Shown: in pieces, positions 4,324 to 33,884 of the stretch | Layout of the letters: each line of letters begins with the position of its first letter | Position numbering within the stretch: the first letter of the stretch is position 1 | Assembly: GCA_963787835.1 (NCBI GenBank) | Contig: CAWBEI010000002.1 | Coordinates: 320,001-384,000 of the forward strand | Source: Ignavibacteriota bacterium | Lineage (GTDB): Bacteria; Bacteroidota; Ignavibacteria; Palsa-1295 | DNA: 64,000 bases | Reading direction: 5' to 3' | The notes under the pieces: generated by a model | The model's database searches: none | Told to the model about the DNA's origin: nothing | The model's input: the letters and a program-made list of their open reading frames with translations, nothing else | Made by a program: the position numbers and the translations under genes

Positions 4324-5739
4324 TCAATTCGCTGGCCGCGATCGTATCCGATTCCCTAATCCCCTCACCCACTTCCCTATTTTTAACGGGTGCTCCGAAG
4401 CCGCGCGCCAGGTGAGGAATATACCTGTAAGCAGCAGAATAAGATTCCCACCCCACATACCCCAGAACGGAGAGATGACTGCACGGTCGGCAAGCTTTTC
4501 ACCGCCAATGAGAAATACCCAATAGAGTACGAAAAACCCGATGGAAAGCCCGGTTCCTGCACCCACGCCGCTTCGTTTCGCCAATGCTCCGAGCGGGATA
4601 CCGATCAAGGCGAAAATAATACACGATGCCGGGATCGCATATTTCTTGTGGGTCTCGACCAAGTAATTGTCCATATCCTCCTGCGTTTCACGCAACGAAG
4701 AAAAATCGTTCTGCATCGCAAGTTGATGCGGGGTGAAGAGATCGCGCATGCGGGAAGCGGTCGTCGGGTTGGAATGCTCTGGCGGCGGCTTCGGAGGGTT
4801 TAACGAGGTCATGGCTGCAGCAAAGGCCTGAAGATGGGTCTTCCAATTACCGATCTCCCGCGCTTGCAGTCCTTCATCGGCATGGACCTTTTTCATCAGA
4901 TCGGTCGCGGAGAGTTCCCTGCCGCTGCGCTCCGATTCGCCTTCGTGCATGAAATCGTATCCACTCGTCGGAACTTTCACGATATACGTTCCGAAATGCC
5001 CGCGCCGGTATTCCGTGGGTTGCGAGGCAAAGACCTCGTGCATTTCGCCATCGTTCAGCGTGAGAATGATACTGCGAAAATCCGGCGTGAACGAGAGATG
5101 CCCCGTCTTCGCGGTAAGCACGCGAGATTCCGAAGGATCGGCATGATCGTAGATCGTGACATCCCCGAGATCGTTCGTTTTCGGATCGACGCGGCGAGAG
5201 AGAATGGAATAGCCGGGAATTTCATCGCCCGTGGTGAACGTACCCGGCTGAATAATAAGTGATGGCTTCTTGCGATTGATATCGGTCATCAGATCCTTTG
5301 CGCGATGGTTAGCATCCGGCAGAATGATGTTATTAAACTGAAGATCGAACACCGCGACGAGCGCACTAAGGATCAGCACAGGGAACATCATGCGCCCGAG
5401 GCTGACGCCGGCGGCTTTCATGGCTGTTAGTTCGTTCGCCGCCGCCATAGAGCCGAACGCCATCACGCCCGCAACCAGCACTGCCATTGGAACCGCAAGC
5501 ACGACCATCCATGCCAGATTAAAAACGATGAGTTCGATGATCGTCCACAAACTTAACCCGCGCCCAACGATGCGGTCGATGAAGCGCATCAGGAATTGCA
5601 ACAAAAACACGAACATGATGACCGAAAGCGCCATCAGGAAGGGCCCCGCCGCCTCGCGGACAATATAGTCCCAGATATGCGCGGAAGTCTTCCACCACCG
5701 GTGGCGTCCGCTCAAGCTTTGTTTAATTTCATGATCCAT
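4324..5739 (-). CDS. lptF: LPS export permease LptF (LptF/LptG family)
   Basis: IWDYIVRE..PF, NELTAMKAAGVS, VETHKKYAIPAS..FALIGIPLG; start placed at ATG 5739. Confidence 0.85.
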   Translation of the reverse strand: MDHEIKQSLSGRHRWWKTSAHIWDYIVREAAGPFLMALSVIMFVFLLQFLMRFIDRIVGRGLSLWTIIELIVFNLAWMVVLAVPMAVLVAGVMAFGSMAAANELTAMKAAGVSLGRMMFPVLILSALVAVFDLQFNNIILPDANHRAKDLMTDINRKKPSLIIQPGTFTTGDEIPGYSILSRRVDPKTNDLGDVTIYDHADPSESRVLTAKTGHLSFTPDFRSIILTLNDGEMHEVFASQPTEYRRGHFGTYIVKVPTSGYDFMHEGESERSGRELSATDLMKKVHADEGLQAREIGNWKTHLQAFAAAMTSLNPPKPPPEHSNPTTASRMRDLFTPHQLAMQNDFSSLRETQEDMDNYLVETHKKYAIPASCIIFALIGIPLGALAKRSGVGAGTGLSIGFFVLYWVFLIGGEKLADRAVISPFWGMWGGNLILLLTGIFLTWRAASEHPLKIGKWVRGLGNRIRSRPAN

Positions 5740-8392: not shown

Positions 8393-8459
8393 CCAGGATC
8401 TCATAATAATTGTTGAATTTTGTGGCAGGTGTGAAATGTGTCGTATATTGGAGCATGAT

Positions 8460-8616
8460 ATTACAAGCACCTATTTCTCTGAGAACAAACATTGCATAAG
8501 TTCATGAAAGAAAGAGGTGAGTTCATTAAATGACAATTCAATTGAGAGTAATAGGCACCTTTGCTGAAAGAACAAATGGCGAATTCAGCACAGGAACGGC
8601 ACAGCTCATGAACTCC
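8460..8616 (+). repeat. Bipartite dispersed non-coding repeat (two related GCACCT...TTCAT units 87 bp apart), intact copy
   Basis: 8460-8540 matches the reverse complement of 32651-32731 at 75/81 nt; 8541-8616 resembles the reverse complement of 22213-22290. Confidence 0.85.
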
Positions 8617-21430: not shown

Positions 21431-22099
21431 CTACCGCATCCGCTCCCTCGCCAATTCATAGACTCGCTCGACCTGAGCTTCGATCGTCAGACGGGTCGTA
21501 TCGAGTTCAATGGCGTCCGGAGCCTTCCGAAGCGGCGAGATCGTGCGTTCCCTGTCGCGCTTATCCCGCTCCTCTATTTGTTGCCGGAGTTCTTCGAGTG
21601 GGATTTGCGTGCCAAGCCGCTCGAACTCGATTTCTCGCCGTTCCGCTCGAACGCTGGCATCTGCGATCAAAAATATTTTTAACTCCGCGTCAGGGAACAC
21701 CACGGTTCCGATATCGCGGCCTTCGAGCACTACGCCACCATCGCTGCCAAGTTCGCGCTGTTTCTCCACCATCTTTGCCCGCACATCAGCAAGAGTTGAA
21801 AGCTCGCTTGCCAGAAGTGCAATATCCGGCTCCAGAATTTCGCGGGAAACATCCACGCCGTTCAACAGGATATTTCCTTTCTCGTCAAATCCGATCTCTG
21901 CCTGAGAAAGCAGTTCGTGAACCCGCGCGGGATCGTGCCCGTGATGATCGCGGCGACGCACCATCAGAGCAAATGCGCGATACATCGCACCCGTATTGAG
22001 ATGCGTGTAGCCGAGCCGAGCCGCGACTTGCTTGGCAGTCGTGCTCTTACCGGAGGCCGTCGGGCCATCGATCGCTATGATTATTCCTTTAGGGCGCAA
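21431..22099 (-). CDS. cmk: Cytidylate kinase
   Basis: IAIDGPTASGKST, NTGAMYR, EGRDIGTVVFPDAELKIFL, RD..D..R..SPL. Confidence 0.95.
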   Translation of the reverse strand: MRPKGIIIAIDGPTASGKSTTAKQVAARLGYTHLNTGAMYRAFALMVRRRDHHGHDPARVHELLSQAEIGFDEKGNILLNGVDVSREILEPDIALLASELSTLADVRAKMVEKQRELGSDGGVVLEGRDIGTVVFPDAELKIFLIADASVRAERREIEFERLGTQIPLEELRQQIEERDKRDRERTISPLRKAPDAIELDTTRLTIEAQVERVYELARERMR

Positions 22100-22212
22100 T
22101 GTTTTATAATAGATTCGCTAAGAAGAGGAAATGACATGAGTATGTTCCGAATCATCTAAGAATGATACCAGGTCTTGGCTCGAACAATGCATCTAATATT
22201 TTTTTTTACAAA

Positions 22213-22292
22213 TTCATTTAATGAACTGTGGCGTTTCCGAGCCAATTTCGCCAATATGTCTTTTAGAAATAGGTGCCCTTTAAACGCAATTG
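22213..22292 (-). repeat. Second half of the bipartite repeat, left flank of the island
   Basis: Reverse complement CAATTGCGTTTAAAGGGCACCTATTTCTAAAAG...CACAGTTCATTAAATG aligns with 8539-8612. Confidence 0.7.
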
Positions 22293-22348
22293 GGTACTGT
22301 CCTAATTAGACTTGGTTCCTAAAACGATATAGTTTTTGTTGTTAAGGC

Positions 22349-22693
22349 TTACATCCCAATGCTTCCCATAAGTTGACGCACGATGCTCTGAATTAAATTC
22401 GGAGTGACTTCATTGAGCGAAAACGGTTGACCGGCATCTTGTTCAACGATAATTTTACCTTTACGAATCGAGAGCGGGATCATCCTTGTGATAGTAGGAG
22501 ACTCCGAATAGCCGGAAAAATGAATACGAAAACATCTCTCTTCCAGCCCATTTTTAGTTTCGGTAATAGTCAAGCTGCACCGATCTGAGTCGTGGATTAT
22601 TTCTGCGACAATATCGGGGTTTTGTACTAACCTCATTTTAATAAGGTCGAAGGTTGGAAGCATTATCTGGTTCGCACATTCATCAAAGTTCAT
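22349..22693 (-). CDS. Hypothetical passenger protein
   Basis: 114-aa ORF with upstream GGAAT-N17-CGTT motif. Confidence 0.55.
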   Translation of the reverse strand: MNFDECANQIMLPTFDLIKMRLVQNPDIVAEIIHDSDRCSLTITETKNGLEERCFRIHFSGYSESPTITRMIPLSIRKGKIIVEQDAGQPFSLNEVTPNLIQSIVRQLMGSIGM

Positions 22694-22807
22694 ACTCTCG
22701 GAACGCCAGAGATTCGAGTGGCATTCCCATCCCCACGGGCAGGTTCGGTGCTTTCAGGTTTTCCGATTGAGGAAACGATACGAGGAATATTGCCGTAAGA
22801 AGAACTG

Positions 22808-23152
22808 ATGGATTATCGTGGTCAAGAAGCATATTATGATGAAAAAGGAACACTTCGCCGAAAAAGCGACGGCGTGAGGATTGTTCTCACTCTAAAAGAA
22901 AGAGAGCAATATAAAAAAGAAGGCTATCTTTCTAACGGCGTAGAGACCGAGCCTCTTAGAGAAGAAAAATTGCAACGTCAGGGTTGTATGCTTTTATTGC
23001 TGAAGGATAAGTCACTGAACGACAAAGAAACTGAGCGGCGCATCAGCGCATTCGCAAAACAACTTATTAGAGAGAACAAAGGCAATCCTGACTTCTGGGT
23101 CATTCGCGCCCCAGAGGACAATACACAACCCTCTCATTGGACGGTTTTATGA
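22808..23152 (+). CDS. Hypothetical passenger protein
   Basis: 114-aa ORF after GAAAC-N17-CGTA motif. Confidence 0.55.
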   Translation: MDYRGQEAYYDEKGTLRRKSDGVRIVLTLKEREQYKKEGYLSNGVETEPLREEKLQRQGCMLLLLKDKSLNDKETERRISAFAKQLIRENKGNPDFWVIRAPEDNTQPSHWTVL

Positions 23153-23373
23153 TCGTCGGATGGAGCGACATATTTGTCTAAAATCTTGGTAATCTCATCT
23201 TCTGCGGAGCATTCTAAGCAAATGGCATAGTAGGTAAGGGCGAACGACTCTTCGTTTTCATATTCTCCTTTAACCGATTTAACGACCTCAACGGTATGCT
23301 TATCGTTAGTTGTGCATTTCGTATTCGCAAATCGTTTTTTAATTTCAGGGGGAATGCGAGGGATTGTTTCCAT
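23134..23373 (-). CDS. Small hypothetical passenger protein (Cys/His, CxxC)
   Basis: 79-aa ORF co-directional with the IS1595 transposase. Confidence 0.45.
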   Translation of the reverse strand: METIPRIPPEIKKRFANTKCTTNDKHTVEVVKSVKGEYENEESFALTYYAICLECSAEDEITKILDKYVAPSDDHKTVQ

Positions 23374-23379
23374 ACAAAT

Positions 23380-23565
23380 TCAACATTCGCTGGAGTTAAA
23401 GCATTCTTCAGGATCGAGCGCGCTTATTCGAAGCCGCTTTGCTCCATCGTGGCTTTCTTGCATAATACTCCGCACGGCGCGCCCGAAGCTCTTCGGTTCT
23501 TCGGAGGTCGTGTTTGTGTTTGGCGCGGAGTTCATTGGAACGGGTTGATCGAGGAGTCTTTTCAT
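23380..23565 (-). CDS. Small ORF coupled to the IS1595 transposase
   Basis: ATGA overlap with the transposase stop. Confidence 0.4.
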   Translation of the reverse strand: MKRLLDQPVPMNSAPNTNTTSEEPKSFGRAVRSIMQESHDGAKRLRISALDPEECFNSSEC

Positions 23566-24482
23566 AAGGATGCTCCGGTCAATTCCTCATACGTCAGCCG
23601 TTTGCCGAAGAGCATCGTGGCCGCCTTGATGAATCTGCCGGAGTCATTGTCCTTTCTGTTATCGTACCGGAAACCCTGTTCGTCAAGGTAGCGGTCAAGA
23701 TGATAGGGTTCAACGTGGATGTACGTGCCTTTGAGGGCGCGCTTCACCAGCGACCAATAGTTCTCAATGGTATTCGAATGCGTGTTACCCTTGACGTATT
23801 CACCGCGTTTGTGATTGACAGTCGAGTGATCGTAAACGACACCGAGTGCCTTGTACGAATTCGCTTCGTCACTGTAAAGGGTTGAGCCGACCTTCACGGT
23901 TGCAAGCACTTGATTCTGAAGCGTCCGTGCGTGAGTGTTCTCAATGACGCGCGCCTGTACTTTGCCACCCCGTTCAACGGCCCCGAACACGATGGTCTTA
24001 CCATCGCTTCCGCCACGGGATTTTACTTTGTTCGCGTGACGATTGCGCTCGGCACCGCCGAAGTAACTTTCATCTATCTCGACAGAACCCGTAAGTTTTT
24101 CCCCCGCATCCTTGGCAATACTTTCTCGGATCCTATGCCCGACATGCCATGCGCTCTTTTGTGTAATTTCTAAGGCCCGTGCTATTTCGTAGGAGCTAAT
24201 TCCATTCTTACAATTAACGACCATCCACACCGCAGGAATCCATTTTGTAATGGGAATTGGCGAGTTGTGCATGACCGTCCCGGCCTTCAAGGAGAACTGC
24301 TTCTTGCAGTCCCGGCATTTGAAGGCCGGACGAGTACGCATTCCGTAGATTGCTGTGGAGCCGCACTTTATGCAGCATCGTTCACCGCCATGCCAATAAA
24401 GCTCCGACAGGAATTCGACGCATACCACTTCCGAGGAGTAGTAGCGTACCGCTTCGAGTAGGCTTTTGGGTGTTTTGAGCAT
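23562..24482 (-). CDS. IS1595-family (ISXO2-like) DDE transposase
   Basis: Zn ribbon CIKC...CRDC; VEIDESYFGG, YSDE, VNH, HSNTIENYWS..KR, YLDE..FRY, KRLTYEEL. Confidence 0.92.
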   Translation of the reverse strand: MLKTPKSLLEAVRYYSSEVVCVEFLSELYWHGGERCCIKCGSTAIYGMRTRPAFKCRDCKKQFSLKAGTVMHNSPIPITKWIPAVWMVVNCKNGISSYEIARALEITQKSAWHVGHRIRESIAKDAGEKLTGSVEIDESYFGGAERNRHANKVKSRGGSDGKTIVFGAVERGGKVQARVIENTHARTLQNQVLATVKVGSTLYSDEANSYKALGVVYDHSTVNHKRGEYVKGNTHSNTIENYWSLVKRALKGTYIHVEPYHLDRYLDEQGFRYDNRKDNDSGRFIKAATMLFGKRLTYEELTGASL

Positions 24483-24979
24483 GATCGTGAGTTATTAGGA
24501 ACGTTCCCGGTGGAAATTGGATTAAATAGAAATACCCGATCATTAATAATAATGATCGGGCAAGTTGTGGCCCAAGCCACACGATTAAATTGTGCCAGAA
24601 TTCGCGTTCTGGTAGTAGCATGATGAGTGCGCGGGGGCGTTCTCGTCATGTACCCGGAGTGTGATTACTCCGGGTTTTCTTTTTCCGAATGAAGAAGCGT
24701 GGTCGATGCGGCTCATACGGAAAGAAAATCACATAAAAAACCCCAAGATATTACCTGAAAAACTCGCTTGCTGGCGTTGAGTCCCGACCGAAGCCGGGTA
24801 GGTAAATCTTGGGGTCAAACCCAAAAAAGTTTCAGTTGTATCGCCAGCAAGACGATGTAGGCTTTCACCTGACTTGGTTGCTAACGTATCATTACACTGT
24901 TCGTTTCAGTTCGCATGAAAAAAGTGGAAACTCTGAAAGCGGATTTGGGTTTCCATCGTGGCCTTTGGAACTAAATGGG

Positions 24980-26506
24980 TTATTTAGTAATCGCCAGATT
25001 GATGTAGCTCACCATATCTCCCACCCTAACGCGGCATACATATTTTCCCGATGGGAGCGTCTCCGTGCCGAGCGAAATGGATTGTGGGCCTTCGTTTGAA
25101 TAACCGTTCATAACCTCCATTATTTGTTTTCCCAGGGGATCATAAATAGCAATCTGCGTAAAGCTGGATTCTACTGTTGTAAATTTCAAGGTCATTCCAC
25201 CGCTTGAAGGATTTGGGAAAACTTCGGGGTTAAACCAATCGGGCTGTTGAGGGGTGGAAACACCCAACGTCGTATCTGAATGAGTCGGGCAATAAAGTTT
25301 CGCGAACATGCAGGAATCATCGCTCCCAAGTCCGCGTGGAGCGATGTTAGGTTGCGCCTGCTTAGATCCCATCAACATCCAATATCCTGGTATGCTACTC
25401 TTACAATAATTATAGTTATTAACGCAGGTGTCTCCACGAACAATCGTATCTGGATGTAGTAACCCGAGCCAATGGCCGATCTCATGCTCGATTATTTCCT
25501 TAAAGCTGAAATCATAAAACCCTTGATTTGCCGCGCCGGGGTCTGGGGCAGGTCCCGTGTACCATCCCATCAATGGACTCTGGTGTAGCTTGTAACCAGG
25601 AATAGGCTGAAGGGCATCGTTTCCATTTTGGTAGAAGAAGCTATTTGTTGCATTGTAAGTAATAAACCGATAATTTGAGTTCGGACATGCGCCTCCATCG
25701 GGGCATCCCGGATGCCCATACGTCCATGCAACAGGATAGCCGGCTTTTTTCAATCCAGATGCTTGATAAGTTCCTTGAAAGTGAAGGATATTAGTGTCCG
25801 GAATTATGAGGATACAGCAGGTTGTGTCGCCAGTAAATCCGCAAATTCCAAGCCACGCATTTAGATCGGATTGAGCATCAGAACTTGCACCACCCGTGTT
25901 CCAAACCTGATCGTAATGCACATCTGAGCCGTTGGCGTATGATATAGAGTCACTTATGTAAGTGTTGTATCTTTCTATATCGATTTCAAAGATTGAGTAA
26001 TCTTCTCTATCGCAGTCATAAACCGATAATGCCTCTTCATATTCTTCGTCATAGTCATAATTATCACGATTAGGAGGAACATCTGGTTCATGTCCATCAT
26101 GCACTTGGTGGAAATCGGTATCCCATTCGTCTAACCCGGCATTATAGGTTCCGGTATCCAAGACCTCACCCGGATCGGGAATGCAGCCGGAGAAAACATC
26201 ATAAGTATCTGGTAACGAAACAGGTTCTGGCGGCTCTGGAACAGGATCGGTCGGTTGATCGAATACACTCGTGTCAGGTGGAATTACATTTACACAACCC
26301 GGTATTTTCGATTTGGAGGGTGTGTAGCTTGGTGGTGGGTCATTCGGGTTTGTCGAACATTGCACGCCTTGAGCACCTGTAACGAAACAAAATACGTAAG
26401 GGAAACTCTCATTCCCGCATGGAATAGGGCAATGTATCGCCTGTGCCAACCCAATAGACGAAACGAAAAGGGAAGCAGCGATTAGAAGAAGTGGAAAAGA
26501 CTTCAT
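24980..26506 (-). CDS. Secreted metzincin-type zinc metalloprotease with T9SS CTD
   Basis: Signal peptide; HEIGHWLGLLH (HExxHxxGxxH) with a downstream Met; CTD VFPNPSS...LPSGKYVCRV. Confidence 0.8.
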   Translation of the reverse strand: MKSFPLLLIAASLFVSSIGLAQAIHCPIPCGNESFPYVFCFVTGAQGVQCSTNPNDPPPSYTPSKSKIPGCVNVIPPDTSVFDQPTDPVPEPPEPVSLPDTYDVFSGCIPDPGEVLDTGTYNAGLDEWDTDFHQVHDGHEPDVPPNRDNYDYDEEYEEALSVYDCDREDYSIFEIDIERYNTYISDSISYANGSDVHYDQVWNTGGASSDAQSDLNAWLGICGFTGDTTCCILIIPDTNILHFQGTYQASGLKKAGYPVAWTYGHPGCPDGGACPNSNYRFITYNATNSFFYQNGNDALQPIPGYKLHQSPLMGWYTGPAPDPGAANQGFYDFSFKEIIEHEIGHWLGLLHPDTIVRGDTCVNNYNYCKSSIPGYWMLMGSKQAQPNIAPRGLGSDDSCMFAKLYCPTHSDTTLGVSTPQQPDWFNPEVFPNPSSGGMTLKFTTVESSFTQIAIYDPLGKQIMEVMNGYSNEGPQSISLGTETLPSGKYVCRVRVGDMVSYINLAITK

Positions 26507-26545
26507 TGTTTGCTCCTTGTGGTTTTGGGAAGTGAATATGAACGA

Positions 26546-27592
26546 TTATGGATGGAGAATATTATAGATTCTCGCGCGAAGTCTTGACTTCCAGACCGCA
26601 ACCGTTAGACCACCAGAAATGGAGGCACCAAGTCCGAAATCGTCGTTAGGATCAACCACATGACCGCTTACGACTCTATACATCGCTCCTTGATTTCCAA
26701 AGACACCCCAATAAGGTTGAATGCTGAAATAGCCATTGGCGGTATCAATTCCAATTCCTGCGATTCGAAGGAACACGATGTATTCTCCTCCCGGCCTGAT
26801 CCACCATCCGGTCGAATCAGACAAAGCAGGCGAAAAAGGCATTTCATCACCTGCAATTGCACTTGCCCATTCGGGTGAATATTCAAATTGAATACACGCA
26901 CCACTATCAGCGCGAACTGCATACGTTGGCCAAGTTGAAGCATAGCTCATGGTTGTAATCTCATTGGATTTCCGGTGAGTGTGCATGTCTTCGCCGATAC
27001 AGAGTGGAATTTTTTGTCCCTTGATTTCATCAAGGATTGTGGAATTAACCAATACTATGTGTGGGGTAATGTTATCTGACGAGTTATACTTGACGATGGT
27101 ATCCCCGATAGTCACGTCCGCGATAATATCGGAAGCAAGAATAAAACCTGTACGACCGGTATCGCCTATACCATTTCCAATTTGATTAGCTAATATTGGA
27201 ATTGAGTTACCAGGGTTACCTTTATAGTGCCAAGAATAATCTGGGTGCCCTCCAAGAGGCCATGAACTGATCTCCCATTGATATAATGATAACGGATTAT
27301 CGTCACTAACTTTGTAAAGCATCTCGGCAAGGAACGTCATCGTGTCATCGTGCCCAAGATTCCCGATCCATTTGTTGATCAAGTTCCATTGCGTTGAGCG
27401 CATAAGTTCATCGGCCCAAAGGTATGCGCTTGCCACGTCGGAAGGTTGACTATCATATAGTGGTGGGACGGTCGTGAGAAGTGGGAGGCTATACTTGATT
27501 AAACCTGGATAATTCGGCCCCGTTTGGCTTCTCACAGCAGGTGCGGCAAAAAAACCTGCCCAAAGAAAGAGGATGAACATGATTCGTTTCAT
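26546..27592 (-). CDS. Secreted hypothetical protein upstream of the protease
   Basis: Signal peptide MKRIMFILFLWAGFFAAPAVRS; 39-bp gap to the protease gene. Confidence 0.7.
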   Translation of the reverse strand: MKRIMFILFLWAGFFAAPAVRSQTGPNYPGLIKYSLPLLTTVPPLYDSQPSDVASAYLWADELMRSTQWNLINKWIGNLGHDDTMTFLAEMLYKVSDDNPLSLYQWEISSWPLGGHPDYSWHYKGNPGNSIPILANQIGNGIGDTGRTGFILASDIIADVTIGDTIVKYNSSDNITPHIVLVNSTILDEIKGQKIPLCIGEDMHTHRKSNEITTMSYASTWPTYAVRADSGACIQFEYSPEWASAIAGDEMPFSPALSDSTGWWIRPGGEYIVFLRIAGIGIDTANGYFSIQPYWGVFGNQGAMYRVVSGHVVDPNDDFGLGASISGGLTVAVWKSRLRARIYNILHP

Positions 27593-27937
27593 AAAAACCC
27601 TTCCAGAAATGAATATTTGAAGTATGAAATTCAACTAACAGCACAAAGATACAACACTTTTTCCATCAAGTTTTAGATTTGATTTTCCGAATTGCAGGAG
27701 AATAGTAGGGTATTTGCAGGTGCTTTTTTCAAATGAAATGGGCGTTATCGTGGCTCTTTTCAACGGTTCATCGTGCATGATCAATTATTATGGAGGTTCT
27801 TATGATAATCGTGTTGCGAAGCATATTTTGTAAGAAAGCAACGATGGAGTAAGGAGGATAGAATCGGTGTTCGAAAGAAAGTCCGATGCTCACATGCCAA
27901 TGAAAAGCAACGGACTTCACCTCAAACAAAAATCATA

Positions 27938-28144
27938 ATGCTGAATGTACCGAAAACACTACTAAAAGAATTCGACGATATTATGAAAGCAAGCAAATGT
28001 GGTAATGACCGCTCCCACGTTATTTACGGAGATATAAACTGGGTTGTACGCGATGCGGCTGGCCTAAATCGTTACGATTGGTATATTAGATGTAGCGAGA
28101 ATGGGTGTTCCTTCACGGATCATGGTACTATCTGGCGGCCTTGA
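27938..28144 (+). CDS. Small hypothetical passenger protein (Cys/His-rich)
   Basis: 68-aa ORF, overlaps the convergent ORF. Confidence 0.35.
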   Translation: MLNVPKTLLKEFDDIMKASKCGNDRSHVIYGDINWVVRDAAGLNRYDWYIRCSENGCSFTDHGTIWRP

Positions 28145-28366
28145 ATCGAGGGGTAAATGAACTTCATTCCATTCTTCATTGGTTTGAGGCATAACATCGA
28201 AAAGCGGATCGTCTTTGAATTTTTCAACAATGTACTCGATAAATTCTTGATCTTTTGGACATTGCAATACCGCACCCGTGTGATAAGGATTCCCTCGCTC
28301 GGTGAATCGTGTTTCCCTCAGACGAAAATAGATGGCAACGTATTCTTTTTGTTCATCAGAAATCAT
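28064..28366 (-). CDS. Hypothetical passenger protein
   Basis: Shares its 35-bp upstream element with 22808-23152. Confidence 0.5.
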   Translation of the reverse strand: MISDEQKEYVAIYFRLRETRFTERGNPYHTGAVLQCPKDQEFIEYIVEKFKDDPLFDVMPQTNEEWNEVHLPLDSRPPDSTMIREGTPILATSNIPIVTI

Positions 28367-28509
28367 AATTCTACTTAAGGTAACGCCGCTTGTATCGTTT
28401 CCTCAATCGGAAATCCTGAAAGCGGCGTAACTTTATTTGGAAACCTCTGGTTGATTCTAATATATTAGTGCCATTTGACTTAGTTCCTAAAACGATATAG
28501 TATTTGTTG

Positions 28510-28758
28510 TTAAGAGGTTTTCGCTTCAGCCATCACAAAAACTCGATGACGGTAATTACCTTGTTCGCCTTCTTGGAAAAGACAGTGATTAACGCGGGAG
28601 ATTATGTAGTCCATCTTGCTATGATTAAATTCTTCACCGACTGATGGAATGACCGGTGCATGGTTGAGTGGGTATTCGCACTCGAACTCATACATAATCT
28701 GACCGCCTTCACGGAGAACGTATTGCACGGCGTATGTTACGCTTTTGATTGAATCCAT
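28510..28758 (-). CDS. Hypothetical passenger protein
   Basis: 82-aa ORF with TGAAC-N17-CGTT motif and the same flanking modules as 22349-22693. Confidence 0.55.
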   Translation of the reverse strand: MDSIKSVTYAVQYVLREGGQIMYEFECEYPLNHAPVIPSVGEEFNHSKMDYIISRVNHCLFQEGEQGNYRHRVFVMAEAKTS

Positions 28759-28887
28759 TGTGTTGTTGTTTCCTTTCGACCCTCGGAACGCCTTAAATTC
28801 GTGGCTCGTTCATGTCTCCCGAATGCGTTATTATCATCGAATATGGCGTTGAGCCACACTCCTGAAATTATTCACAATTAAAACAAT

Positions 28888-29136
28888 ATGTCTATGCAAA
28901 TTAAATTCAACCTTACGGGCAAATCGAACGGCATTAAAACTTACGATGTAAAGAGCGGAGAGGCTACTCTTACCACCGCAAGAAGATTGCCGGGTGTAAC
29001 GGGCTATGAAATCATCAATCCCCAAAACAACGAAGCAAAACAGGGGTTGGCAGGGGAACTCTTACGTGAGTTCTTCCCAGACCTACGGGGCGCTGCTTTA
29101 GAGATTGAAGATCAGGACGGCATGGCCATTATGTAG
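28888..29136 (+). CDS. Hypothetical passenger protein
   Basis: 82-aa ORF followed by a terminator hairpin. Confidence 0.5.
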   Translation: MSMQIKFNLTGKSNGIKTYDVKSGEATLTTARRLPGVTGYEIINPQNNEAKQGLAGELLREFFPDLRGAALEIEDQDGMAIM

Positions 29137-29147
29137 GGATGTTCAGA

Positions 29148-29173
29148 GAAGGGCGGCCCAATGGCCGCCCTTC
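29148..29173. terminator. Hairpin terminator between convergent genes
   Basis: GAAGGGCGGCC-CAAT-GGCCGCCCTTC. Confidence 0.65.
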
Positions 29174-29175
29174 AT

Positions 29176-29809
29176 TTATTGTAACACAGTATCCCATCCC
29201 CACGCACTGTTCGCAATCCCTGCCATTTGAGCCGGAGTGCAACCGATCGAGGAATGAAAGCGCATGAAATTGTAATGATAGAAGTGAAGATTCACTGCGG
29301 CTCGTAGGTTATCGAGCTTCTTGCTCCAAGCGTTTGTCAGCCTTGTCAGTCGCCTCAACCCCATACGCATCGTGAGGTTTTGCCTCTCGATGTAGCTGGT
29401 GGAAATATCTTCTACCAGTGGTGCGCCGAATATGACTCGTAGCGTTACTCCGACCAGACGGGCGGGTGAGTAACGACGCTCCCCAATGTACGCCTCGGAA
29501 TACTTTTTGTGAACTTGTCCGTAATCAATGGCACTCTTTCCATAGACCTTGTAAATCGCACTCACATAAGCATTCCAGGCATCGGTGCTGAGTTGGTAGC
29601 GGGTTTCGATGCGATCTCGAAGCTGTTCGAGAAGCTTCATAGCACTCCACCCATCACGCTTGCCAACATAGAATGCTGGTACGAGCTTGCTATCTGCATC
29701 AATGGCAACGAAGGTGTAAGCGTCACCATATTCCGCTTTATCAGCTAACGGATCTACACGTTTCTGTTTCTTTCCCACGTATCCCCAGACTTCATCGAGC
29801 TGTATCCTT
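29176..29809 (-). pseudogene. 5'-truncated IS1-like DDE transposase
   Basis: IQLDEVWGYVGKK, STD, ISTSYIERQNLTMRM; homologous to 30285-31139 but the HTH N-terminus is replaced exactly at the TIR starting at 29810. Confidence 0.85.
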
Positions 29810-29860
29810 GGTAGTGGCTCAGTTTGGGAACTTTCGATATTTTTATACTGAATTATGTTT

Positions 29861-30058
29861 ATGAACACACAAAAGATCGAAGTCGGCGATATGGTGAAAT
29901 TGAAAAACGGCGCAACGGTATTAATGTCCGTTCACGAATTGAACGGACATGGGATAGAATGCGATTGGTTAGATAACGAGAATAGATCGCAAAGACAGAC
30001 CTTTGCACCTGCCCAACTTATCCGTTTAACCGATTCCCAAAATAGTCAACGAGAATGA
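29861..30058 (+). CDS. YodC/DUF2158-like small protein
   Basis: IEVGDMVKLKNGATVLMSV...IECDW...QTFAPAQL. Confidence 0.7.
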   Translation: MNTQKIEVGDMVKLKNGATVLMSVHELNGHGIECDWLDNENRSQRQTFAPAQLIRLTDSQNSQRE

Positions 30059-30212
30059 GTTGCTCCGTTATGAAGGCACCTTCTTGGAGTTCCCCGTTTT
30101 TGCTGAACCATTGGCAAATCCAATGATCTCCTGAGCCTTTGCGATTAACGCTCATTATTGGAGTGCCCTGAATGAATCCAAGATGGACTAAAGAGCCGGG
30201 TTTTATTTCCAT
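30018..30212 (-). CDS. Second YodC/DUF2158-like small protein
   Basis: IKPGSLVHL...GTPIMSV...WICQWF...EGAFITEQL. Confidence 0.65.
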   Translation of the reverse strand: MEIKPGSLVHLGFIQGTPIMSVNRKGSGDHWICQWFSKNGELQEGAFITEQLILVDYFGNRLNG

Positions 30213-30243
30213 GATTGTAATAGAATTATGGTTATGAAATAGA

Positions 30244-30271
30244 ACGGGCTGGGGTGAAGTCCCAGCCCGTT
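30244..30271 (-). terminator. Hairpin after the transposase
   Basis: AACGGGCTGGG-GTGAAGT-CCCAGCCCGTT. Confidence 0.6.
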
Positions 30272-30284
30272 TGCGTTAACACGC

Positions 30285-31139
30285 TTAGTCAACCGTCAAA
30301 TCCCGTGTGTCAAGCAGGTCAACCAAGTCACCAATACTCCAAAGGTGATTCGTGAGTCCCGCCTTCATTGCAGGGGTCATTCTAAGGGACTGGTGAACCC
30401 TCACGAAATTGTAGTGCATGAAGTGCAAAGCGATTGATGCGATATGATGCTCAACGCTTTTCGAGAACCCATTCGTGAGCCGGGTAAAACGGCGCATTGA
30501 CATTCTCATTGTGAGGTTTTGACGCTCAACGATTGATGTAGAAATGTGATCGGCATTCGGATTTCCGAACTTCGGCTGTTTCTCAATGCTAATAACTTCA
30601 CCGGGGCTGTATCGCACGTCTGGCGAGTTGCCAGCACCTTTGCCATATTTCTTTACAAGCATTGCATAATCTACACCGTTGACGCCGAACGACTCACGAA
30701 CGGCGGTAAAATAATTTGCATGTGCGTCCGTTGTCAACTGAACGCGGTTAGCGAGACGGCTCGCTACATCACTCATGAACATATAGGCGTACTCTCCGTC
30801 ACGCCGTCCTACGAGCCATGAAATGATTAATTTGGAATCTGTATCAATGGCAGTCCAAGTCCACTGGGAACCAACATTGCCGGAAGCTCTCTCACCGTCC
30901 GTGCAATTAGCGTCTTTCTTTCCTACGAAGCTCCAAATCTCATCGGCCTCAACACGTTGCGCCGTGACACCCTTAACATTCTCATCGTGGAACTTCTCAC
31001 ACGCCGCACCTAAGTCAAGAAGGAGCTTAGAAATGGTATTCCGCGACACGTCAACCATGCGCGAAATCGCACGGATGGAATTGCCCTCGACAAGTGCCGA
31101 TACGATCTGAATTTGTTTGTCTCTGTTTAGCTTGTTCAT
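30285..31139 (-). CDS. IS1-like single-ORF transposase (HTH + DDE, no Zn finger)
   Basis: LVEGNSIRAISRMVDVSRNTI (HTH); VEADEIWSFVGKK; LTTD; HISTSIVERQNLTMRMSMRRFTRLTNGFSK. Confidence 0.9.
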   Translation of the reverse strand: MNKLNRDKQIQIVSALVEGNSIRAISRMVDVSRNTISKLLLDLGAACEKFHDENVKGVTAQRVEADEIWSFVGKKDANCTDGERASGNVGSQWTWTAIDTDSKLIISWLVGRRDGEYAYMFMSDVASRLANRVQLTTDAHANYFTAVRESFGVNGVDYAMLVKKYGKGAGNSPDVRYSPGEVISIEKQPKFGNPNADHISTSIVERQNLTMRMSMRRFTRLTNGFSKSVEHHIASIALHFMHYNFVRVHQSLRMTPAMKAGLTNHLWSIGDLVDLLDTRDLTVD

Positions 31140-31215
31140 GATAACTTAAACGGGTTACCCTAAGCATAAGTTTCAGTTTGTTTATTATTCTTCAAACAAA
31201 ATAGCATTCGTTAAG

Positions 31216-31470
31216 AAACCCGCGCCGGAACAATCCCGGCGCGGGTATGGTTAGTATAACCACGAGAGAAGCCGCCCGCCCGCAAAAGCAAACGGCTCCC
31301 CCTCCGTAACGCAAAAGCGTTACGCCTTTCACGGTAATCGTAAAAAGGGTGCTGGTGAAGCCACTAAAGGCTCTAACCGATTCCACGAAGTAGAAAGCGA
31401 CAGGAATCAGGCCACCAGCAAAATCAATATTAGGGGCTAATTTCGCCGTAGGAAGCGATTTTAGCCCTTT
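31216..31470 (-). ncRNA. Candidate structured non-coding RNA inside the transposon
   Basis: Six consecutive stem-loops, e.g. CGTAACGC-AAAA-GCGTTACG and a GCTGGTG...CACCAGC multiloop, ending in a terminator-like CCCGCGCCGG/CCGGCGCGGG hairpin. Confidence 0.45.
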
Positions 31471-31926
31471 TTATTCATCTTGTTTCGCTAAATTCCATTC
31501 TTTTAACCAGATTAAGTCGCCCTGACGCACGATTCTATCATCTTGTCCAACGCCGATAGCGAAGTTTCGGAATTCAAAAGTCTTGTTTCCGCTTCCCTTA
31601 TAGCCGTTTTTAACGAGGTGGTCGTATGCTTTCCTGAGAGAGTATTTGGCTGTTTTCTGTATTTTTAATAGCGCATAGGTCGCATTCGATGCCGTCATGC
31701 CAGTATAGAGTCCGGGCGACGGTAGATCGCCCTCATCCTCTTCATTCTCGGAAGCATCCTGTTCATCTTCATTTTCATCCGAAATCTCAATAAATTGTAG
31801 GAGTTCATCCGCCACGCCGGGTTTTAAGAATGAGGCAAGCCGATCATTCTCTTCCTTCAAAATCTCAATTTTTCCATCATTTTCAGCGATTTTAGCCCTA
31901 ATTTTGCTCTCTGAAAAGGTTATCAT
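31471..31926 (-). CDS. Hypothetical passenger protein (coiled coil, acidic linker, possible winged-helix C-terminus)
   Basis: Start MITFSE (31926) or ATG 31992; KIEILKEENDRLASFL heptads; DENEDEQDASENEEDE linker. Confidence 0.6.
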   Translation of the reverse strand: MITFSESKIRAKIAENDGKIEILKEENDRLASFLKPGVADELLQFIEISDENEDEQDASENEEDEGDLPSPGLYTGMTASNATYALLKIQKTAKYSLRKAYDHLVKNGYKGSGNKTFEFRNFAIGVGQDDRIVRQGDLIWLKEWNLAKQDE

Positions 31927-31995
31927 GATTTTCTCTGAATTATTTTTTGATGTTCTCGGTTCTATGGTTGCTACAAAATGCAAAACAGCCATTAG

Positions 31996-32072
31996 TAGCG
32001 GGGCGGGGGATCGAACCCCGCTCCTCTGGATCGAAAGTCCAGTGACCTACTGCCAAGTTAGTCTATCCCGCT
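31996..32072 (-). tRNA. Atypical tRNA-Glu(UUC)-like gene
   Basis: Cloverleaf: acceptor AGCGGGA/CCCCGCT, D stem GACT/GGTC with GG in a 12-nt loop, anticodon arm CTGGA-CTTTCGA-TCCAG, T arm CGGGG-TTCGATC-CCCCG, discriminator A followed by CTA. Confidence 0.8.
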
Positions 32073-32332
32073 GTTGAACTTAAAGGAATTGACCGAGTAA
32101 GCCGCCAAGCTTTTACCCGGTCTTTTTCGTTTAAGTGCACCCAACTAACCTTAACGGGTTCGAAAAGATTCATTAGTTAAATGGAAATAATGTAGTTAAA
32201 ATTTTAACGCCTCATTTCAGCAACAACAACTCGAAGCGTAAGACGTAGCTCAATACAGTTTTCAGCGCGTCAGATAAGGACGGAATCGACCCGAACGCGC
32301 CTGTATGACAATGAATAATTCCCACCACAGAT

Positions 32333-32566
32333 TCAATCTGTTTTCTTCTTCCACCGGGCTTTAGCCGCTTTTTTAGCAATCTCAGACCGCTTCTCGGCAC
32401 TTAGACGGGTCGCCCGAAGCTTTCCGCCCTCAGAACCCTTTTTTACGAATACTTCGCGGGGAATGGCTGTTTCTTCCTCGGTAGGCTCTATTTGACCCGT
32501 TGCATATTGCATGATCTTAAAAGCGCGTTGGTTTGGGTCACGGGGTAGTTTTTTGGGTTTTATCAT
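32333..32566 (-). CDS. Small basic transposon-associated protein (PRDPNQ / GGKxRA..LS..RSEIAKKAA.ARW family)
   Basis: Motif I recognise beside this type of IS1-like transposase (often auto-annotated histone-H1-like or RNA-binding); first gene inside the right TIR. Confidence 0.75.
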   Translation of the reverse strand: MIKPKKLPRDPNQRAFKIMQYATGQIEPTEEETAIPREVFVKKGSEGGKLRATRLSAEKRSEIAKKAAKARWKKKTD

Positions 32567-32650
32567 AACCCCTTAACGTTGCTTAGGGGGTAAGCATTGC
32601 TATAAAAAGTATAAAACACGAAACAATGGTTCCGAAAATGAGCCACTACC

Positions 32651-32731
32651 TGAATTGTCATTTAATGAACTCACCTCTTTCTTTCATGAACTTATGCAAT
32701 ATTTGTTCTTCCAGAAATAGGTGCTCTTAAT
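32651..32731 (-). repeat. First half of the bipartite repeat, right flank of the island
   Basis: 75/81 identical to 8460-8540; the 50 nt next to the TIR are identical. Confidence 0.9.
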
Positions 32732-32789
32732 ACCACTCTCTAATATACGACACTTTTCCCAGACGCCACGAAATTCGAAATTTTCTTTG

Positions 32790-33201: not shown

Positions 33202-33884
33202 GCTCCGTAGGAGCGCAATATTTGTAGCCCCCGGTTTCAACCGGGGGTTGAGGAGGGCACAGGAATCATAAGCTCCGGAGGAGCGGCATATCACCCCAGC
33301 GCGGTAAAATCGAACAAGTATCGTTCATCGTATGGAATACCAAACGCTTCGAGCAGCGCAATATACTCCTCACGGAATGTATGCTTTTTATGATGCGCTT
33401 CCTGATTCTGAATGTACGCGATGACATGGTCTAATTGGGAACGCGAATAGGAGAATGCGCCAAAACCCTCCTGCCAACAAAAATGCCGCGTCATCCACGA
33501 CTGCTCGTTCAGCCAGAGCGTTGAACTCGCCTTGATGTGCTTGACAAGATCCGAGATCGATTGATCGGGCTTCAAGCCAACCAGAATGTGGATATGATCC
33601 GGCTCGTTTTCAATTGCAATGAGTTTATGTTTGTGATTTTGAATGATACCCGTAATGTATTTTTGAAGTTCCTCTTTATGCTCGCGTGGGATGAGGTTTT
33701 CACGACCTTTGACAGCAAAAACAAGATGAATATAAAGTTGTGTGTAGGTATTGGCCATTTGGGTGATATTACGCTCCTACGGAGCTAAGGGGTATTATTC
33801 GTGCTCCGCAACCCCCGATTAAAATCGGGGGCTACAAAGATTAGGCTCCTAATGGAGCCATGTAATATTCCGCTCCTGGAGCTT
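33202..33884 (-). mobile_element. Y1-transposase locus flanked by inverted REP-like palindromes (RAYT-like layout)
   Basis: Left GCTCCGTAGGAGC...GTAGCCCCCGGTTTCAACCGGGGG; right CCCCCGATTAAAATCGGGGGCTAC...GCTCCTAATGGAGC. Confidence 0.65.
33291..33758 (-). CDS. tnpA: IS200/IS605-family TnpA (Y1 HUH transposase)
   Basis: YIHLVFAVKGR, PDHIHIL (HUH), FCWQEGFGAFSYS, YIQNQ. Confidence 0.9.
   Translation of the reverse strand: MANTYTQLYIHLVFAVKGRENLIPREHKEELQKYITGIIQNHKHKLIAIENEPDHIHILVGLKPDQSISDLVKHIKASSTLWLNEQSWMTRHFCWQEGFGAFSYSRSQLDHVIAYIQNQEAHHKKHTFREEYIALLEAFGIPYDERYLFDFTALG

Follow-up and report, generated by a model that had tools for sequence, protein, structure and literature searches.

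The 64,000-nucleotide stretch that we analysed (the window; positions 320,001 to 384,000 of contig CAWBEI010000002.1, assembly GCA_963787835.1, Ignavibacteriota bacterium) carries between cmk and recA a 10.4-kb island, at 22293-32650, of which there is no second copy elsewhere in the genome. The features are collected in Table 1. The island is likely to be a pile-up of remnants of four mobile elements, IS1-like and IS1595, lying in a repeated promoter-leader module. On sequence evidence, many members of the IS1-like family appear to home to promoters at a fixed distance of 15 bp, across many taxa.

Table 1. Features of the island and its surroundings, in window coordinates. L and G numbers are our handles for loci and genomes; ORF, open reading frame; HTH, helix-turn-helix; T9SS, type IX secretion system.
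Feature	Position	Strand	Remarks
Intact copy of the same repeat	8401-8600	-	
cmk	21431-22099	-	Pfam PF02224; now 10.4 kb farther from its likely promoter
GGTGCC box of repeat	22272-22277		
Putative surviving 8-bp target copy of B1, CGCAATTG	22285-22292	+	7 nt from GGTGCC, 6 nt off the usual register
End of type-B element B1 (GGTACTGTCCTAATT...)	22293-22346	+	92% to the end of L145; same end type with 8-bp duplications in L036, L038 and L039
Passenger ORFs of 114 aa (-), 114 aa (+) and 79 aa (-)	22349-23373		No Pfam match
64-bp module	22741-22804		Repeated inverted at 28369-28432
61-aa ORF after the IS1595 transposase	23380-23565		
IS1595-family transposase	23562-24482	-	PF12762, PF12760; NF033547 180 bits against a cut-off of 75
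Cargo: 508-aa protein (T9SS sorting domain, weak M12B peptidase match) and 362-aa protein without family	24980-27634	-	
IS1595-type right end, GGCACTAATATATTAG	28457-28472	-	Similar ends with 8-bp duplications in relatives
Second type-B end (B2), first 12 bp gone	28473-28514	+	93% to 22305-22346
B2 transposase, cut by the end of A	29176-29809	-	N-terminal ~61 aa (HTH) missing
Element A, intact, IS1-like, 2,841 bp	29810-32650	-	Ends 29810-29831 and 32629-32650 match at 20/22
Two convergent DUF2158 ORFs	29855-30212		Pfam
284-aa single-ORF DDE transposase of A	30285-31139	-	N-terminal HTH; invariant D66, D138, E205
173-aa passenger	31471-31992	-	No family match (Pfam, NCBIfam)
tRNA gene, anticodon TTC	31995-32072	-	No close copy elsewhere in the genome
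77-aa basic ORF	32333-32566	-	In about half of relatives; one homologue labelled 'histone H1'
Surviving 8-bp target copy of A, TGAATTGT	32651-32658	+	Doubled around the related L032 in G002
Box pair TTAATGAA / TTCATGAA, 21 bp apart	32662-32690		First box 3 bp beyond the target; TGAAC at position 16 from the end
Second GGTGC box and -10-like hexamer TATATT facing cmk	32720-32747	-	Likely cmk promoter

An earlier note on this DNA had read the 10.4 kb as one composite unit inserted with a 2-bp (TG) target duplication. The junctions are as it gave them, letter for letter: CGCAATTG/GGTACTGTCC at 22292/22293 on the left and CTACC/TGAATTGTCA at 32650/32651 on the right. The intact repeat copy at 8531-8548 also reads as quoted, and the outer ends are indeed related and non-identical, matching at 10 of 16 positions. 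The note had made its reading depend on reads spanning the junctions. Public contigs cross the left junction (X2, 22243-22404) and the inner one (X1, 29696-30409) with no difference, and the sequencing runs behind them may include the source sample; no contig bridging the right junction is among the public matches listed. Within the island there are at least four elements rather than one unit, the IS1595 element, the second left-type end and the tRNA gene having been overlooked.

Element A, on the right, is complete, and only this element (2.84 kb) would still be mobile. Its inner end at 29810 cuts the transposase of a second element, B2 (28473-29809), whose similarity to the intact enzyme begins at residue 62 of the latter. 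The right-hand element adjoins a transposase shortened in the way expected of an adjacent deletion, which supports the proposal that one element deleted into the other. The B2 transposase is 42% identical to that of A, and the two fall in separate clades, B2 as sister to L038 (tree support 0.999) and A with four elements of the genus (0.889). No transposase and no second end of its own were found in the island for B1, on the left. The 64-bp module shared by the two parts may have been the crossover point that joined B1 to the IS1595 body. That body carries the transposase domains of its family by both Pfam and NCBIfam; no matching left end, and hence no end pair with an 8-bp duplication, was found, and we class it as a remnant. 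The sequence fits either order of insertion for the two outer elements. The A/B2 junction creates a 230-aa ORF (29176-29868) that starts inside the end of A and continues into the B2 catalytic domain, without an HTH. The tRNA gene borne by A differs from the two tRNA-Glu genes of the host, and a tRNA-like gene is present in 10 of 136 relatives, two of them with a stop-reading anticodon.

The length of the target duplication was scored in relatives whose element ends had been defined blind to the flanks. Among 93 two-ended elements from 160 genome and metagenome loci, 85 have an exact 8-bp duplication, six have none, one has 1 bp and one 7 bp; none has 2 bp. Viral loci gave 8 bp in 42 of 60 cases, with 14 none, three of 1 bp, and one of 2 bp that is a two-letter match at chance level. 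The duplication is 8 bp in 13/13 elements from genomes of the same class, in 17 of 24 new viral and 2/2 plasmid elements of a later set, and, within the host's own family, in all ten elements for which both ends could be resolved (18 loci of relatives). By the earlier note's own account, 8-9-bp duplications at unrelated sites would speak against it, and relatives carry 8-bp duplications at many such sites. Element L032, with a transposase 70% identical to that of A, occupies the same position in a different copy of the repeat, flanked on each side by TGAATTGT. From the 8-bp rule and L032 we infer that B1 duplicated CGCAATTG and A duplicated TGAATTGT.

The two elements would then have inserted separately, at sites offset by 6 bp, and the inner target copies would have been lost later, when a deletion ran from the left end of A into the B2 transposase. 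The two staggered targets overlap by TG, and this overlap alone would look doubled, which is the likely source of the apparent 2-bp duplication. The suggestion that two related transposons entered one site in tandem therefore survives in part: separate related elements did enter the same repeat, but at offset targets rather than a shared one. Adjacent deletion mediated by insertion sequences is given in PMC11708052 as a documented cause of missing duplications. The course of events is alike, with insertion followed by a one-end deletion that erases the visible duplication; here, in contrast, two staggered targets leave a misleading 2-bp remainder. Could the island nonetheless be a single 10.4-kb composite with a TG duplication? 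Removing 22293-32650 together with one TG does rebuild the consensus spacing of the repeat, but the staggered 8-bp targets rebuild the same allele, and the outer ends match at only 10 of 16 positions and come from separate clades. L032 refutes the composite unless the enzyme of A behaves unlike its close relative, and we find this explanation scarcely credible. Duplications of 2 bp are an IS30-like trait, and this assignment too was rejected on the 8-bp duplications of relatives. The headline TG duplication is thus an overlap artefact and the island itself an ordinary pile-up, an anatomy of which we are confident.

The target is a leader module (8401-8600; 22200-22292 with 32651-32760) that combines phased palindromic boxes with GGTGCC boxes and a -10 pointing inward. 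Elsewhere in the genome 17 further intact cores occur, and in 16 of these the spacing is 28 nt, as in the allele rebuilt by deleting the island and one TG. The TT(C/A)AT(G/T)AA boxes are paired, usually at a distance of 21 or 32 bp, and 26 of the 27 clusters in G000 lie outside ORFs; the exact 21-bp pair is found in 7 of 15 genomes of the genus. In five of the six other two-ended elements of the genus the duplication ends 3 bp before such a box, the exception being L037, and the earlier inference of targeted insertion is borne out. Counted by end, the box register is kept in 8 of 30 ends within the genus and 0 of 56 outside it. A search over gaps of 2-30 gave five matches in the genus, all with a gap of 11 (the same elements or ends as the box-register set), and two further matches outside the genus that are not element ends. 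Both transposase clades share this register. Insertion targeting is, on these sequence comparisons, almost certainly real.

At the cmk locus the insertion likely separates the gene from its promoter. A variant of the repeat lies upstream of cmk in G002, G009 and G014, where the search pattern found no IS1-like end. In four of seven fetched relatives cmk and recA are linked, with other cargo in between. We tried several identities for the repeat. Rfam at its gathering threshold matched only the tRNA in the window; as a dif site or a sigma54 or extracytoplasmic function (ECF) sigma promoter the repeat gives half-matches only, by inspection; and as the operator of a regulon it has mixed neighbours, with no regulon evident around 20 copies (typA, CoaE, obg, lptF, an ECF gene, a methylase and several BNR/T9SS proteins). 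Two repeat copies, near 4,680 and 10,540 of G000:C2, are identical, flanks included, and face opposite ways next to typA-like ORFs; an assembly fold-back may have produced them. The module is also entered by IS1595 elements of the genus (L434, L435 and L440 in G009, G006 and G002; L436, L438, L443 and L445), and in three of them the 8-bp duplication sits on the -10-like hexamer itself.

Beyond the genus a second landmark emerges. In a set of 83 non-redundant elements, 17 downstream flanks and 5 upstream ones have a TTGAC whose first base is position 16 counted from the element end. We scored flanks with an approximate sigma70 matrix, its 5-bit threshold being set on this first set. A -35 with a -10 is found at position 16 in 36/83 elements against a background of 1.9%, and later sets gave 10/40 (background 1.3%) and 8/13 (6.8%). 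When these sets are pooled, a sigma70-type -35 accompanied by its -10 lies exactly 15 bp beyond the element end in 54 of 136 elements (background ~2%); a further set gave 4/17 (2.2%). In the first 136, 56 flanks score at position 16, 15 and 12 at its neighbours, and 0-8 at positions 18-60. The peak persists at thresholds of 4, 6 and 8. A secondary peak of 14 flanks lies at position 6, one helical turn closer.

Several further properties were examined in these flanks. The -10 is enriched both with a strong -35 (15/47 against 13/381) and with a weak one (16/183 against 694/32564). On promoter sides a sense ORF follows in 35 of 45 cases, compared with 22 of 44 on opposite sides (and 74/148). Even among elements that do not score, TTG stands at 16 in 19 cases where 2.6 are expected. 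An 'AC' readout at 19-20 is not enriched in non-promoter sites. The targeting showed no link to the basic ORF (p=0.73) and no clade specificity (38 changes against 41.6 shuffled, p=0.135, over 133 labelled tips; the tree excludes a duplicate of one genus element and two elements lacking an intact match). The duplicated letters themselves show a weak intrinsic preference, S-A-A-N-N-T-T-S. L486 is flanked by a resident end and, on its opposite side, by a promoter, as would be predicted if elements stack on one promoter site.

The family is also present in cultured alphaproteobacteria. It includes miniature inverted-repeat transposable elements (MITEs) of 140-170 bp with the same ends, some with an internal hairpin repeat (L129-L141 in G015, L082, L090, L074), and a 42-bp two-ended relic in G011 (L109). 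Six insertions (L156, L158, L171, L178, L197, L280) overlap the outer arm of dif-like sites, at two offsets.

In the host's own family the flanks look different. Across 56 ends from outside the genus, many of them MITEs of G015, GTT occurs at 38-39 in 18 (background 1.3), spread over 8 genomes, and GAA(C/T) at 15-17 in 13 (background 1.5), with both motifs in 10. The shape recalls ECF promoters: AAC...N17-18...GTT is described for Chlorobaculum (10.1101/172254), and EcfG promoters have the same AAC...GTT form (PMC7083833). In G000, GAAY-N18-GTT is intergenic in 40% of cases (109/270), against 18% and 27% at spacers of 17 and 19 and 10-15% at spacers of 13-16 and 20-22. Approximately 100 intergenic GAA(C/T)-N18-GTT(A/T) sites in that genome, 74 of them facing a gene, are likely to form a large ECF regulon. 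The TGAAC of the repeat lies within one base of the ECF -35 register and could be read as an ECF-type -35.

We propose that the family finds its site by docking with a protein already on the DNA, most probably the RNA polymerase holoenzyme, which would set the element end 15 bp from a -35-type box. Two unlike -35/-10 pairs at one register point to polymerase as the shared protein rather than to one DNA sequence, and the guide would be promoter-bound polymerase whatever its sigma factor. We put the whole reading, of a pile-up by separate 8-bp insertions and a later deletion at a site chosen in this way, at approximately 55%. From the sequence patterns, polymerase has a little better than an even chance of being the guide. 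The broadest form, in which a widespread IS1-like family docks 15 bp upstream of sigma70 and ECF -35 boxes alike, is tentative, with the odds somewhat against it.

A number of observations weigh against the proposal. There are 82 of the 136 elements that score no promoter, and both two-ended plasmid elements fail to do so; of 75 ends in the host's own family, the sigma70 matrix matches only 1. The ECF motif came to light post hoc, and the broad set lacks it. Behind the TGAAC of the repeat no -10 can be recognised, and GTT stands at 38-39 in only 1 of 30 genus ends. This very site is therefore not a normal promoter, and there a regulator on the phased boxes is nearly as likely a guide as polymerase. 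The end of B1 is 6 nt off the register, and IS1595 elements use the module at other positions, so that the module is a general hot spot as well. An empty allele at strain level was looked for and not found; none of the seven fetched relatives is close enough, and an order-level pattern search returned the same 35 genomes.

The most serious alternative is that the transpososome inserts beside any tightly bound protein, with no specific contact. The anatomy would be unchanged, and the protein might be polymerase, Xer at dif, transposase on a resident end, or a regulator on the phased boxes of the repeat. Besides promoters and the boxes, five of the 136 elements neighbour dif-like sites and six touch or overlap resident ends, where polymerase is a non-obvious guide; these cases favour the looser rule. 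The operator-like spacing and intergenic position of the box pairs agree with it, as does the absence of orientation bias at promoters (32 against 24). So does the way B1 and A mirror each other within the 28-nt spacer, with 7 nt between each and a conserved motif, which for B1 is GGTGCC. However, the offsets vary with the landmark, promoters of two sigma classes dominate with one-base precision, and the TGAAC of the box is within a base of the ECF -35. We therefore consider insertion beside any bound protein unlikely, if still a real contender.

Direct readout by the transposase fits less well. The enzyme would read a TTGAC- or TGAAC-like motif 15 bp from the cut, resembling the TTTGAA of its own ends, and promoters would merely happen to carry it. 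Both the consensus end and the genus targets do carry TGAA at 16-19, and it also stands at 16 from the inner deletion point, which lies inside a gene and fits either direct readout or chance; the weak preference within the duplication points the same way. Yet sigma-specific -10 boxes co-occur even where the -35 is weak, the motif is one-sided rather than palindromic about the target, and transposases as little as 42% alike share the genus site, so that this is improbable. Pure selection also fits less well. If insertion into AT-rich DNA were near-random, with only copies in harmless intergenic places spared, the variable cmk-recA interval (1.9-8.9 kb in four relatives) and the IS1595 elements collected by the module would be expected. 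Selection should, however, yield a broad range of distances and not a single base, and with a generous null of intergenic insertion the probability of five of six elements at the box register is ~1e-14 (the elements, being kin, are not wholly independent, although their flanks differ). This possibility is already largely refuted, and we give it very little weight. Docking on polymerase thus accounts best for the register.

How does element A relate to known families? Its enzyme matches PF03400 at 36.7 bits, against a cut-off of 24.1, and has the invariant acidic residues of the IS1-related DDE, RNase H-fold transposases. A predicted model (predicted local distance difference test score 82.8) matches DDE enzymes. 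IS1 elements have short ends beginning with GGT and make 8-9-bp duplications, as do the elements here, and adjacent deletion is a further likeness. The NCBIfam equivalog NF033558 scores 67 bits against a cut-off of 100 (relatives 72-74), and A is therefore filed as IS1-like and not IS1 proper; NCBI labels three of four plasmid relatives 'IS1 family transposase'. Classical IS1 has an N-terminal zinc finger, two frameshifted ORFs and a weak AT-rich target preference. In contrast, no zinc finger, cysteine motif or frameshift was found in the single ORF of A, which starts with an HTH; cargo lies inside the ends, and target choice is sharp. It may belong with a single-ORF, passenger-carrying group of IS1 that we take to be called 'ISMhu11', a name for which an open-access search found 0 papers.

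The insertion geometry has its closest counterpart elsewhere. TnGBS, ISLre2 and ISKra4, which have Mutator-like transposases, are reported in PMC3942029 to insert 15-17 bp upstream of sigmaA -35 boxes, with a peak at 16 bp from the end, and those with near-perfect ends do so in both orientations. Contact with polymerase is there proposed, not demonstrated, and the promoter habit is called unique to those families. The same geometry, in both orientations, is found in our 54 of 136 relatives and is absent from the window's own site. The differences are a transposase of another family and the use of ECF-type promoters, dif-like sites and an operator-like repeat as well. No Mutator match was found in Pfam or NCBIfam; the top fold match of the model, ISCth4, covers only ~165 columns with a template modelling score of 0.43. 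The enzyme is IS1-like and by its insertion sites appears to work like that of ISLre2, and it is a strict member of neither group. A fixed offset from a protein-bound site, with dif targeting, is described for the ISAba32 subgroup of the IS1202 family (10.1101/2022.12.17.520857; PMC10132070), and a few relatives here lie at dif-like sites. That subgroup differs in its 5-bp duplication 5 bp from the Xer site, on the XerC side and in one orientation, and in its transposase; here the duplication is 8 bp and the target in the window is not dif. No report of promoter targeting by IS1-like elements was found in the open-access literature.

Two further features of the window lie outside the island. 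An IS200/RAYT-like Y1 transposase between 48-bp inverted repeats (33208-33851) adjoins recA, and a 541-aa ORF contains tandem coding repeats of 132-138 bp (1654-2603).

The island shows that where two ends are unlike, a short duplication seen between them may arise as an overlap artefact. Promoter-directed insertion is already published for Mutator-like elements, and the targeting seen here leads to a testable rule for the whole IS1-like family. An abundant, unrelated transposase of 284 aa with the same geometry makes the question of polymerase contact testable with a small enzyme. If the broadest form of the proposal is correct, insertion scars would map promoters in uncultured bacteria, the repeat of this genus would offer an ECF holoenzyme a place to park with a -35 alone, and one rule would explain how cargo elements come to stack on one target. 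Promoter targeting would then explain both the low-cost spread of these cargo carriers and their stacking into islands.

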